This document shows, piece after piece, positions 2,526-63,109 of a DNA stretch of 64,000 nt. Within the stretch, counting starts at the first letter, position 1; each line of letters opens with the position of its first letter. The stretch comes from Eledone cirrhosa (taxonomy: Eukaryota), in the NCBI GenBank assembly GCA_964016885.1, contig OZ024757.1, positions 5,084,001-5,148,000 on the forward strand. The letters run 5' to 3'. The notes below the pieces were generated by a model that was not told the origin of the DNA, searched no databases, and worked only from the letters and a program-made list of their open reading frames with translations. The translations under genes were made by a program, and so were the position numbers.

Positions 2526-5500
2526 ATTAGAAAGATCGAGTATCGAAAAATCGGCGCACGAGTTCACGATAAACGAAATTCGATATGAGCGGCAGAGGGC
2601 TCAATAATTCAGATGAATCAGAGCTATAACTATCGTTAAAATACCGTCACATATAGAACAAGTCTACAATCAACCATACGATTTAAAATCGATAAAGGAA
2701 GATTCGGGCCAAACAGATAAAAAATATCAATAAAACAATACGTCAATAATTTAAATGAATGTAAAATCATACCCGGACCCACTAGAAAGGTGTTAAATCT
2801 AGCTTCATGGGTTTCTGTAAATCCTTAGACTGTACTCTATCAGCTCACATATAAATATAAAAGCCTACTAGAGTAAGTGGAACGGAGTTTACGTTATCAA
2901 CGAGTTTTTTCCTGGCGGCAGAGGAGTCAACTAGCGGTGAAAAACGCACATGGCATTAGACAAGGGAGATGACCCCTATATCCGCGAAAACAATTCGAGT
3001 GAATGTGGAAATACACATATCGAATTAGAGTGCTCAATAGACATGTTAAAATAAAACAAAAGCTATTCATCACTCAATAGAATCGACAAAAAATGAGCAA
3101 TAAAATTAACTGGTGGATAGCTATGTCCAGAGCTAAATATATTAGAAAGATCGAGTATCGAAAAATCGGCGCACGAGTTCACGATAAACGAAATTCGATA
3201 TGAGCGGCAGAGGGCTCAATAATTCAGATGAATCAGAGCTATAACTATCGTTAAAATACCGTCACATATAGAACAAGTCTACAATCAACCATACGATTTA
3301 AAATCGATAAAGGAAGATTCGGGCCAAACAGATAAAAAATATCAATAAAACAATACGTCAATAATTTAAATGAATGTAAAATCATACCCGGACCCACTAG
3401 AAAGGTGTTAAATCTAGCTTCATGGGTTTCTGTAAATCCTTAGACTGTACTCTATCAGCTCACATATAAATATAAAAGCCTACTAGAGTAAGTGGAACGG
3501 AGTTTACGTTATCAACGAGTTTTTTCCTGGCGGCAGAGGAGTCAACTAGCGGTGAAAAACGCACATGGCATTAGACAAGGGAGATGACCCCTATATCCGC
3601 GAAAACAATTCGAGTGAATGTGGAAATACACATATCGAATTAGAGTGCTCAATAGACATGTTAAAATAAAACAAAAGCTATTCATCACTCAATAGAATCG
3701 ACAAAAAATGAGCAATAAAATTAACTGGTGGATAGCTATGTCCAGAGCTAAATATATTAGAAAGATCGAGTATCGAAAAATCGGCGCACGAGTTCACGAT
3801 AAACGAAATTCGATATGAGCGGCAGAGGGCTCAATAATTCAGATGAATCAGAGCTATAACTATCGTTAAAATACCGTCACATATAGAACAAGTCTACAAT
3901 CAACCATACGATTTAAAATCGATAAAGGAAGATTCGGGCCAAACAGATAAAAAATATCAATAAAACAATACGTCAATAATTTAAATGAATGTAAAATCAT
4001 ACCCGGACCCACTAGAAAGGTGTTAAATCTAGCTTCATGGGTTTCTGTAAATCCTTAGACTGTACTCTATCAGCTCACATATAAATATAAAAGCCTACTA
4101 GAGTAAGTGGAACGGAGTTTACGTTATCAACGAGTTTTTTCCTGGCGGCAGAGGAGTCAACTAGCGGTGAAAAACGCACATGGCATTAGACAAGGGAGAT
4201 GACCCCTATATCCGCGAAAACAATTCGAGTGAATGTGGAAATACACATATCGAATTAGAGTGCTCAATAGACATGTTAAAATAAAACAAAAGCTATTCAT
4301 CACTCAATAGAATCGACAAAAAATGAGCAATAAAATTAACTGGTGGATAGCTATGTCCAGAGCTAAATATATTAGAAAGATCGAGTATCGAAAAATCGGC
4401 GCACGAGTTCACGATAAACGAAATTCGATATGAGCGGCAGAGGGCTCAATAATTCAGATGAATCAGAGCTATAACTATCGTTAAAATACCGTCACATATA
4501 GAACAAGTCTACAATCAACCATACGATTTAAAATCGATAAAGGAAGATTCGGGCCAAACAGATAAAAAATATCAATAAAACAATACGTCAATAATTTAAA
4601 TGAATGTAAAATCATACCCGGACCCACTAGAAAGGTGTTAAATCTAGCTTCATGGGTTTCTGTAAATCCTTAGACTGTACTCTATCAGCTCACATATAAA
4701 TATAAAAGCCTACTAGAGTAAGTGGAACGGAGTTTACGTTATCAACGAGTTTTTTCCTGGCGGCAGAGGAGTCAACTAGCGGTGAAAAACGCACATGGCA
4801 TTAGACAAGGGAGATGACCCCTATATCCGCGAAAACAATTCGAGTGAATGTGGAAATACACATATCGAATTAGAGTGCTCAATAGACATGTTAAAATAAA
4901 ACAAAAGCTATTCATCACTCAATAGAATCGACAAAAAATGAGCAATAAAATTAACTGGTGGATAGCTATGTCCAGAGCTAAATATATTAGAAAGATCGAG
5001 TATCGAAAAATCGGCGCACGAGTTCACGATAAACGAAATTCGATATGAGCGGCAGAGGGCTCAATAATTCAGATGAATCAGAGCTATAACTATCGTTAAA
5101 ATACCGTCACATATAGAACAAGTCTACAATCAACCATACGATTTAAAATCGATAAAGGAAGATTCGGGCCAAACAGATAAAAAATATCAATAAAACAATA
5201 CGTCAATAATTTAAATGAATGTAAAATCATACCCGGACCCACTAGAAAGGTGTTAAATCTAGCTTCATGGGTTTCTGTAAATCCTTAGACTGTACTCTAT
5301 CAGCTCACATATAAATATAAAAGCCTACTAGAGTAAGTGGAACGGAGTTTACGTTATCAACGAGTTTTTTCCTGGCGGCAGAGGAGTCAACTAGCGGTGA
5401 AAAACGCACATGGCATTAGACAAGGGAGATGACCCCTATATCCGCGAAAACAATTCGAGTGAATGTGGAAATACACATATCGAATTAGAGTGCTCAATAG

Positions 5501-7722
5501 ACATGTTAAAATAAAACAAAAGCTATTCATCACTCAATAGAATCGACAAAAAATGAGCAATAAAATTAACTGGTGGATAGCTATGTCCAGAGCTAAATAT
5601 ATTAGAAAGATCGAGTATCGAAAAATCGGCGCACGAGTTCACGATAAACGAAATTCGATATGAGCGGCAGAGGGCTCAATAATTCAGATGAATCAGAGCT
5701 ATAACTATCGTTAAAATACCGTCACATATAGAACAAGTCTACAATCAACCATACGATTTAAAATCGATAAAGGAAGATTCGGGCCAAACAGATAAAAAAT
5801 ATCAATAAAACAATACGTCAATAATTTAAATGAATGTAAAATCATACCCGGACCCACTAGAAAGGTGTTAAATCTAGCTTCATGGGTTTCTGTAAATCCT
5901 TAGACTGTACTCTATCAGCTCACATATAAATATAAAAGCCTACTAGAGTAAGTGGAACGGAGTTTACGTTATCAACGAGTTTTTTCCTGGCGGCAGAGGA
6001 GTCAACTAGCGGTGAAAAACGCACATGGCATTAGACAAGGGAGATGACCCCTATATCCGCGAAAACAATTCGAGTGAATGTGGAAATACACATATCGAAT
6101 TAGAGTGCTCAATAGACATGTTAAAATAAAACAAAAGCTATTCATCACTCAATAGAATCGACAAAAAATGAGCAATAAAATTAACTGGTGGATAGCTATG
6201 TCCAGAGCTAAATATATTAGAAAGATCGAGTATCGAAAAATCGGCGCACGAGTTCACGATAAACGAAATTCGATATGAGCGGCAGAGGGCTCAATAATTC
6301 AGATGAATCAGAGCTATAACTATCGTTAAAATACCGTCACATATAGAACAAGTCTACAATCAACCATACGATTTAAAATCGATAAAGGAAGATTCGGGCC
6401 AAACAGATAAAAAATATCAATAAAACAATACGTCAATAATTTAAATGAATGTAAAATCATACCCGGACCCACTAGAAAGGTGTTAAATCTAGCTTCATGG
6501 GTTTCTGTAAATCCTTAGACTGTACTCTATCAGCTCACATATAAATATAAAAGCCTACTAGAGTAAGTGGAACGGAGTTTACGTTATCAACGAGTTTTTT
6601 CCTGGCGGCAGAGGAGTCAACTAGCGGTGAAAAACGCACATGGCATTAGACAAGGGAGATGACCCCTATATCCGCGAAAACAATTCGAGTGAATGTGGAA
6701 ATACACATATCGAATTAGAGTGCTCAATAGACATGTTAAAATAAAACAAAAGCTATTCATCACTCAATAGAATCGACAAAAAATGAGCAATAAAATTAAC
6801 TGGTGGATAGCTATGTCCAGAGCTAAATATATTAGAAAGATCGAGTATCGAAAAATCGGCGCACGAGTTCACGATAAACGAAATTCGATATGAGCGGCAG
6901 AGGGCTCAATAATTCAGATGAATCAGAGCTATAACTATCGTTAAAATACCGTCACATATAGAACAAGTTTACAATCAACCATACGATTTAAAATCGATAA
7001 AGGAAGATTCGGGCCAAACAGATAAAAAATATCAATAAAACAATACGTCAATAATTTAAATGAATGTAAAATCATACCCGGACCCACTAGAAAGGTGTTA
7101 AATCTAGCTTCATGGGTTTCTGTAAATCCTTAGACTGTACTCTATCAGCTCACATATAAATATAAAAGCCTACTAGAGTAAGTGGAACGGAGTTTACGTT
7201 ATCAACGAGTTTTTTCCTGGCGGCAGAGGAGTCAACTAGCGGTGAAAAACGCACATGGCATTAGACAAGGGAGATGACCCCTATATCCGCGAAAACAATT
7301 CGAGTGAATGTGGAAATACACATATCGAATTAGAGTGCTCAATAGACATGTTAAAATAAAACAAAAGCTATTCATCACTCAATAGAATCGACAAAAAATG
7401 AGCAATAAAATTAACTGGTGGATAGCTATGTCCAGAGCTAAATATATTAGAAAGATCGAGTATCGAAAAATCGGCGCACGAGTTCACGATAAACGAAATT
7501 CGATATGAGCGGCAGAGGGCTCAATAATTCAGATGAATCAGAGCTATAACTATCGTTAAAATACCGTCACATATAGAACAAGTCTACAATCAACCATACG
7601 ATTTAAAATCGATAAAGGAAGATTCGGGCCAAACAGATAAAAAATATCAATAAAACAATACGTCAATAATTTAAATGAATGTAAAATCATACCCGGACCC
7701 ACTAGAAAGGTGTTAAATCTAG
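2526..7722 (-). repeat. Tandem array of a 615-bp unit (8 full copies plus a partial); retrozyme/Penelope-like concatemer candidate
   Basis: Units start at 2526, 3141, 3756, 4371, 4986, 5601, 6216, 6831 and 7446. Only one substitution was noticed (C>T at 6969). The left end abuts (TA)n. Strand is inferred from the HHR-like motif. Confidence 0.95.
2776..2843 (-). ncRNA. Variant hammerhead-like motif, one per 615-bp unit
   Basis: Minus strand reads CTGATAGA-GTA(c)AGTC taag GATT TAC-A-GAAA-CCCA(tgaag)CTAGA..TCTAG-TGGG-TC. Stem III and the GUC site are clean. The core has two extra A residues and stem I is weak. Confidence 0.5.
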
Positions 7723-62445: not shown

Positions 62446-62539
62446 AATATATCTGAGGACCCTGCGAATGTAGAGTCAGGTTGGATCTATAATAGATCCT
62501 GCCTTGAGCTGATCATCGGAGAAACATATGTAATATGTT
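62446..62539 (+). ncRNA. Type I hammerhead motif with long stem II
   Basis: aatatat-CTGAGGA-[61 nt including the hairpin ggatctat/atagatcc]-GAAA-catatg-TA-atatgtt, with palindromic stem III ACATATGT. Confidence 0.72.
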
Positions 62540-63109
62540 AACAAAATGTGTTTTGATGCATCACTGATTCCTCGTTATCTATAATATATATATATATATA
62601 CACGAAAGGGTCAACAAACGTACCCCCCCAAAACAAGGTGCATCCCTTACTTTAGCAATCATCATCTGGTTTGCCAGCACTGTGGTCATAGTTGGAAAGA
62701 ACAAACAAAATGTAGGTAAGGAACTCCAAGAGGAACTGAAGCACGATTGTAAGGAGAGAAGTAAACAAGAACATGTAAAGAAGGAAAAATAAAAATAGAT
62801 ATAAAGAAAACAGATTTTTTAAAAAGTGAAAATAAAGGGGTAGGAAGGGGTGTATAGGTCGAGGATGGCAAGTGTGTATAGCAGTGGGTGGAGGCGAAGA
62901 GAAAGGTTGGGGAAGATAGAAAATGAGAGTCTGGGCAGGGATGGTGGAAGGTAAGGTGTATGTGTAGAAGAGGTCGATGGTATCATGAGGTAAAGATAAA
63001 GCTGGAGCGAGAGTAAAATGGTAATGAGGAAGTGAAATGGCAGTGTGGCACACGCAACCGGAAGTAGTGGTCGTTTCGGGAGAGTGGGAGCAGAGGGTGG
63101 TGTTGGAAG

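Follow-up and report, generated by a model that had tools for sequence, protein, structure and literature searches.

Truncated Penelope-like element ends in (TA)n tracts of Eledone cirrhosa, likely inserted from both ends of a break

Element ends in a 64-kb window

The stretch analysed here, called the window, comprises 64,000 nucleotides of the Eledone cirrhosa genome (assembly GCA_964016885.1, contig OZ024757.1, positions 5,084,001 to 5,148,000, forward strand). It contains ends of Penelope-like elements (PLEs) which lie in (TA)n tracts, often as inverted pairs, and several of which carry hammerhead ribozyme motifs. A prediction made from the sequence alone had described them as one family of non-coding elements, inserted as four divergent hammerhead pairs. 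Below, S denotes a 3' end without a tail and T a 3' end with a tail. The features, sorted into families by letter, are as follows.

2526..7722, minus strand: family B array of 8 full 615-nt units plus 277 nt, a non-coding tandem element with its T end at 2526 on (TA)n
2836-2843 (core in unit 1), minus strand: family B hammerhead-like, non-canonical motif, present in each unit
7722-7753: joint of the family B array and its short arm, with a duplicated 16-nt word
7736..8000, plus strand: family B inverted short arm, with an S end ~100 nt short of the T end
8221..8366, minus strand: family E single arm with an S end; canonical type I hammerhead at 8324-8260
8367..8380: (TA)7 spacer dividing two separate insertions, longer in duplicated copies
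8381..9182, plus strand: family C single arm with an S end, read as the 3' untranslated region (UTR) of an element with reverse transcriptase (RT) and GIY-YIG domains; canonical hammerhead at 9077-9147
9334..9759: family I foldback, read as Neptune-type PLE 3' ends, tailed (33 nt) on the left arm and tail-less on the right, hammerhead not found
11394..11575: family G foldback of two truncated hammerhead 3' halves; right arm with a ~76-nt tail
60378..60557: family H foldback of two truncated hammerhead 3' halves; left arm with a 76-nt tail at 60378-60453
60578..61646, minus strand: family A long arm, read as the 5'-truncated 3' UTR of a Hydra-clade element; 92-nt tail at 60578-60669, decayed hammerhead at 60783-60717
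61639..62034, plus strand: family A inverted short arm with an S end; canonical hammerhead at 61921-61987, overlapping the long arm by 8 nt where the two join
62050..62387: piece F, TA-flanked and without a hammerhead, seen only in loci on two contigs; outside any divergent pair
62377..62583, plus strand: family D single arm with an S end; canonical hammerhead at 62446-62539, linked gene not found

The hammerheads are real. A structure scan of the window placed canonical type I motifs with a self-complementary stem III at +9085, +61929, +62453 and -8316, with predicted cut sites after 9139, 61979, 62532 and 8268, respectively; a fifth copy, at -60775, has a decayed core (CTAACGA). The strict type I scan gave 4 matches in the window, against none in any of its 60 block-wise dinucleotide shuffles. 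Across 11 related motifs 97.7% of cells pair, a figure to which no probability is attached because the sequences are related. Stem II carries compensatory changes on both sides in 6/8 pairs, and stem III is self-complementary in 11/11 motifs, including across one two-sided change. Among the matches listed in three Rfam scans (for one scan, the best 150 of 186), no hammerhead family was found at the motif sites; the matches were microRNA models on palindromes.

In their palindromic helix III, these motifs resemble the minimal hammerheads of Cervera and de la Pena (2014, PMC4209133), from which they differ by a 7-8 bp stem I and a long stem II; the palindrome is of even length. The same authors describe opposite-strand hammerhead pairs 100-700 bp apart and regard solo motifs as truncated PLEs. 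A motif of the minimal type does occur nearby, at 60035 (60029-60068). It follows a GIY-YIG frame (Pfam E 0.023, below the cut-off) in a Neptune-type remnant at 59187-60095 on the plus strand, which is distinct from families A to I.

The layout of divergent hammerhead pairs survives in one of its four cases, 60578-62034, where both arms belong to one family and are 93% alike. At 2526-8001 neither arm has a canonical motif, the best candidate having an extra core base and a single stem I pair. The supposed pair at 8221-9182 joins a family E arm on the left to a family C arm on the right; since two families are involved and the spacer is (TA)7 here versus (TA)11-32 in three duplicated copies, these are two unrelated insertions. 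The stretch 62050-62583 resolves into the non-hammerhead piece at 62050-62387 and the lone family D arm. Three short foldbacks between TA tracts had also been recognised and are indeed present; what had been overlooked is that each has a tail on one side (9334-9371, 11500-11575 and 60378-60453) and that two are made up of truncated hammerhead 3' halves.

The same contig and contig C28 carry further copies of parts of the window. These segmental duplicates (L001-L007, L347-L351 and the like; L numbers denote loci elsewhere in the genome) were excluded before counting, as was L365, whose tailed end is a pseudo-long terminal repeat (pseudo-LTR) junction. Genome samples consist of the top-scoring matches, 25-40 per search.

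Genes upstream of the arms

Within the window, no open reading frame is evident in the arms, as had been stated. Elsewhere in the genome this no longer holds: three of the four families with canonical hammerheads run upstream into RT/GIY-YIG genes. Because of this continuation, the arms are very probably, in the main, 5'-truncated copies of coding Penelope-like elements rather than a separate non-coding family. The original prediction had suggested looking for autonomous elements with these 3' ends; gene-bearing copies were found for families A, C and E (one locus) and, of Neptune type, for family I. The assignment to Penelope-type elements is thereby borne out, and the notion of a single non-coding, non-autonomous family is not; from its sequence, only the 615-nt array in the window looks truly non-autonomous.

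A first look in the genome gave 2047 candidates for the family A arm, which is not a copy number. Upstream of this arm, 20 stretches of 10 kb were followed; after ~2 kb of AT-rich sequence the walk reached a frame with GIY-YIG and RT. A protein search for family A returned 86,905 candidates, 94 of which were scored, and 20 long-frame loci were fetched; family A 3' sequence is clear in 19/20 of these gene-bearing loci. Two of the frames, of 750 amino acids (L187) and 463 amino acids (L050), combine RT with a C-terminal GIY-YIG domain; Pfam reported no family on either, and the assignment is made from motifs. L050 holds the whole arrangement in one piece, namely (TA)n, an inverted short arm, the RT-GIY-YIG frame, a ~2 kb 3' UTR, the hammerhead and (TA)n; it is the long arm that bears the gene.

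Craig et al. (2021, PMC8557442) define the Hydra clade, one of the EN+ (endonuclease-bearing) PLEs, by a C-terminal GIY-YIG domain, DKT, a CxCx5C linker, RWK and CxxC/CxH. In a pattern scan of the 20 family A gene loci SDKT occurs in 12, most of the rest being 5'-truncated, and the linker is found as CNC[RK]NxxxC in 18. CxxC and CxH are present around E and N, while CCHH, read by eye, is absent. In line with this clade, a canonical hammerhead lies near the 3' end and insertion is into (TA)n. Family A departs from published Hydra-clade elements in having RWR instead of RWK at the expected N-terminal place (L193, L198, L200, L205), a unit of about 4.6 kb with a ~2 kb 3' UTR (published units are mostly <3 kb) and a tail of 76-100 nt (published, 30-40). 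It departs from them further in a long stem II and an even-length palindromic stem III, in a hammerhead unlike that given for the octopus family Hydra-1_Obim, and in its very high abundance here. By these sequence characters, family A is clearly to be read as the 3' UTR of a full-length Hydra-clade element. Four family A loci contain a partial tandem pseudo-LTR in which a short leader and an ATG continue the tail. As the tail continues into a leader and start codon, T is not the end of the RNA.

For family C, a related gene lies upstream in 5/6 long loci, five of the six having been chosen for long shared flanks, and for family E in one locus (L344). The gene of family I, found in L338 and L339, is of Neptune type, with DKG, a CX2-5CxxC linker and, C-terminally, a GIY-YIG domain above the Pfam cut-off. 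Judged by these motifs, from which the clade name is read, the foldback at 9372 is the end of a Neptune-type element without a hammerhead. No firm gene link was found for families G and H in the loci examined. The features are thus mostly new families of known Penelope-like clades. An inverted 5'-truncated copy (Penelope-13_HM), a one-sided tail and (TA)n targeting are all described in PMC8557442, and neither the elements nor their layout is new.

Paired ends and how they may arise

Almost all family A 3' ends (84/87) fall at one of two sites downstream of where the ribozyme is predicted to cut, S at ~55 nt and T at ~147 nt. The adjacency to (TA)n that had been noticed is confirmed: (TA)>=4, that is at least four repeats, follows within 24 nt in 74/84 of these ends, compared with 6.3% of window positions. 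In family A, (TA)n lies outside both arms, and the inner junctions are variable.

For families A and E we sought loci by tail sequence alone, so that the partner arm played no part in their choice. Two arms were present in 41/54 loci (17/24 for A, 24/30 for E). The inverted partner ended at S in 17/17 cases for A and in 23/24 for E, the remaining one ending at T. A tailed end therefore faces a tail-less end in 40/41 two-armed insertions (p=2e-11 against 50:50). An earlier family A sample, scored by eye and without individual verification of the continuity of kilobase-long pairs, gave one S and one T in 27/31 pairs, the other four being one T+T, one S+S and two whose ends are intermediate. Pairing of S with T was also seen in 6/6 cases for family I and in 5/5 two-armed insertions of the window. 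The proposal that both ends of a (TA)n break are extended looks correct.

Two further observations concern the RNA. The two arms of an insertion are closer to each other than to the median outside copy in 17/17 E pairs and 8/10 A pairs. The 5' ends pile up 250-280 nt from T (12/41 in A, 23/54 in E), with 1 and 2, respectively, in the next 31 nt. Only 5 (A) and 1 (E) lie within 12 nt of the ribozyme cut, where there is no peak. Because 5' ends do not accumulate at its cut site, the ribozyme is probably not what shapes the insertions. Family I, scored by eye in 25 loci, stops at a single site 227 nt from T in about half of them; these copies (window 9560; L313-L337), in which no hammerhead was found, often stop there as the same foldback. 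The pile-up lies at a position matching an internal promoter of Penelope (PMC2377424).

Taken together, we consider it likely (probability roughly 0.75) that truncated Penelope-like 3' ends were inserted by priming from both ends of a (TA)n break at two fixed sites of one RNA. The element enzyme would cut the (TA)n tract and prime reverse transcription from both DNA ends, at S and at T. Both start sites would be internal to the RNA, the T site running into the 5' leader in full-length copies. The two cDNAs would grow toward the RNA 5' end, stop early or run off, and then join head to head. The pile-up at 250-280 nt may mark the transcription start in the pseudo-LTR, and the hammerhead would be carried along uncleaved. 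That this twin priming takes place on one uncleaved RNA is the somewhat better supported option on the sequence evidence.

A precedent comes from the Poseidon element PAc, for which both strands were cut and extended in vitro and ribozyme cleavage was not needed (Frangieh et al. 2024, PMC11167929). Two internal start sites lay downstream of the hammerhead and bracketed the tail, just as S and T do. PAc is from another clade, and its start sites are not homologous to the cut DNA, whereas S and T abut short TA-like words; a strict division of the two sites between the strands was not reported for it.

Twin priming is familiar from L1 elements, in which two target 3' ends prime on one RNA and produce a head-to-head inversion. 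Compared with this, the second site is fixed here and the two arms usually overlap in sequence.

Several points weigh against this interpretation. For family D, 15 short and 10 long loci, which overlap in part, yielded no gene in the same orientation, and the gene of family E comes from a single locus. There are exceptions to the pairing: T+T in L012 and L393, S+S in L197 and intermediate ends in L032 and L035. The likeness of the arms is not significant for family A alone (p=0.11), and such likeness could also arise when inverted arms undergo gene conversion. Most tailed arms exceed the S-T distance, which obliges the model to invoke displacement or successive RNA use; a simple collision model, in which a tailed arm is never >92 nt, was rejected on this ground. 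In full-length copies, the 5' end of the pseudo-LTR coincides with the pile-up in only about 2/5 cases. In PMC11167929 both strands used the same start sites without preference, from which alone strict pairing is not predicted.

The best-placed competitor, which we nevertheless judge rather unlikely, is a single priming event after which the cDNA folds back or switches template, either to itself or to a second RNA, the tail difference arising when the endonuclease resolves an intermediate. This explanation of the tail is published (Craig et al. 2021, PMC8557442), and short hairpins, duplicated words and microhomology at junctions would suit it, as would the near-identity of arms within a pair. 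Tail-only arms of 64-101 nt (L024, L038, L047, L201, L205), however, share little or no sequence with their partner and so are not fold-back copies of it. Moreover, either arm can be the longer one, and S and T correspond to the pair of start sites determined for PAc in vitro.

A stricter version of two-site priming is more speculative still than the general one, and we put it forward tentatively. Twin priming would be obligate, with one protein dimer holding one uncleaved RNA and extending each (TA)n strand from a different site, which would account at one stroke for both the inverted copy and the tail on one side. The 615-nt family would be a one-site variant rolling round its template, possibly with an undescribed self-cleaving hammerhead variant.

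The 615-nt tandem family, remaining explanations and meaning

From its sequence, family B is a young, non-coding tandem element that is nearly always one-armed. We sampled 37 dispersed arrays with at least one full unit, a choice that leans toward T. They hold 1 to 10 full units of 99-100% identity; 36/37 end at the same base before (TA)n and 1/37 at S. An inverted arm is present in 1/37, the array of the window itself, and in 0/30 loci of each of two sister families (these loci overlap partly and span only 1.5 kb on each side). Three sister units, including ones of 606 and 627 nt, are all non-coding. No gene that might act as a helper was found upstream in the loci fetched or in the three sister units. 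The 615-bp unit is likely a non-autonomous passenger using mostly the T site, giving one-armed tandem arrays.

The motif of family B does not pass as a canonical type I hammerhead, owing to its extra core base and single stem I pair, and its ninth core base differs in sister B3. Three sister families retain the hammerhead-like core together with a GUC site. The 5' ends spread over the unit. Just downstream of the predicted GUC, 8/37 fall within 35 nt (post hoc, scan p=0.003), a cluster that a test of uniformity over the whole unit did not pick up (p=0.38); 18/30 rows do so in B3, a query-biased sample. We rejected this cluster as proof of cleavage: the same distance from T is piled up in A, E and I, away from the ribozyme cut. 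In L176, near 2750, the predicted GUC cut coincides exactly with the 5' end of a B array, which adjoins a family H foldback without intervening TA; this may reflect a template jump or chance.

Private variants fixed array-wide occur in 6 B arrays (among them L156, L165, L167, L170 and L172), which requires that one unit was copied repeatedly; L171 and L174 have two further private changes beside a shared variant. L159 and L162, two separate arrays, share a variant in their third unit, and this suggests that the template was a linear multimer. A terminally redundant RNA on which copying jumps repeatedly would serve as well as a circular template. Unit positions 245 and 268 occur in all four variant combinations as array-wide types, suggesting recombination between templates. 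Over about 15 nt, the junction between units is similar to the one where tail meets leader in family A, weakly hinting at an origin by internal deletion. Family B or close relatives are also present in sequencing runs of four other organisms from four studies.

Family B is the natural place to consider that the elements are self-standing non-autonomous ribozyme elements (retrozymes), which would self-cleave, probably circularise and be inserted by a Penelope enzyme. Like animal non-LTR retrozymes (PMC7229834; bioRxiv 10.64898/2026.07.22.740005) and non-autonomous Chlamys elements such as MRC1, it forms non-coding head-to-tail arrays with Penelope-type ends, and its 37 near-identical, frameless arrays with private array-wide variants fit in part. 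Many short A and E copies share one 5' site and could be transcribed independently. There is also a young tandem-plus-inverted array in L034 (2443-7175 of the oriented copy) and L033, with a canonical hammerhead in every 466-nt unit, which is a better retrozyme candidate than family B. Against this, A, C, E and I continue into genes, so that A, C and E are not non-coding, and short A arms are intermixed with gene-linked arms on a poorly resolved tree. Family B itself, 615 nt long, has no canonical type I hammerhead, and the shared third-unit variant argues for a linear template. As a general account we consider retrozymes unlikely.

Less probable again is that two RNAs, joined as a hammerhead dimer through their palindromic stem III, supply the two arms. 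Such motifs are reported to act as dimers (PMC4209133), and the conservation of a self-complementary stem III through a two-sided change would agree with this. Cofolding yielded the dimer form for the 8316 motif and none for five other motifs tried. Family I shows the S-with-T pairing although no hammerhead was found there, arms match each other better than they match other copies, and two equal RNAs give no reason for S plus T.

That the arms are terminal inverted repeats (TIRs) of DNA transposons, inserting at TA as foldbacks like miniature inverted-repeat transposable elements (MITEs), is very improbable and, on sequence grounds, largely refuted for A, C, E and I: near-perfect palindromes exist (60454-60557, 9372-9759) and about 8/25 loci repeat the family I foldback, centred almost identically, but arm lengths and junctions vary by locus, arms often stand alone, the ends lack symmetry, and what the linked genes encode is RT/GIY-YIG and no transposase.

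Other repeats of the window include nested foldbacks within a SINE-like (short interspersed nuclear element) repeat at 33573-33775, one arm of which is TA-flanked (4 matches among fetched loci), and a 362-amino-acid frame at 57395-58483 on the minus strand, a non-LTR reverse transcriptase remnant. Repeats of 84 bp at 34700-35085 read as C2H2 zinc-finger units. Large minisatellite arrays occupy 42482-57292, 15830-19483, 13687-15816 and 21442-22177, with units of 20/25, 71, 53, 34 and 61 bp.

Most short hammerhead pairs in (TA)n are coding elements in truncated form; annotation should list them neither as non-coding families in their own right nor as MITEs. To the published layout our data add the near-strict pairing of S with T, the variants common to both arms and the 5' pile-up away from the ribozyme cut. 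A literature search on Penelope twin priming and non-autonomous cephalopod Hydra elements, with most subscription papers and Repbase outside its reach, found no account of the S/T pairing. The route by which Penelope-like elements produce inverted and tandem insertions was named as open by Craig et al. (2021) and again after the first in vitro work. With many young copies bearing fixed S and T ends, a one-armed variant and a candidate start site, the E. cirrhosa genome makes this mechanism directly testable.

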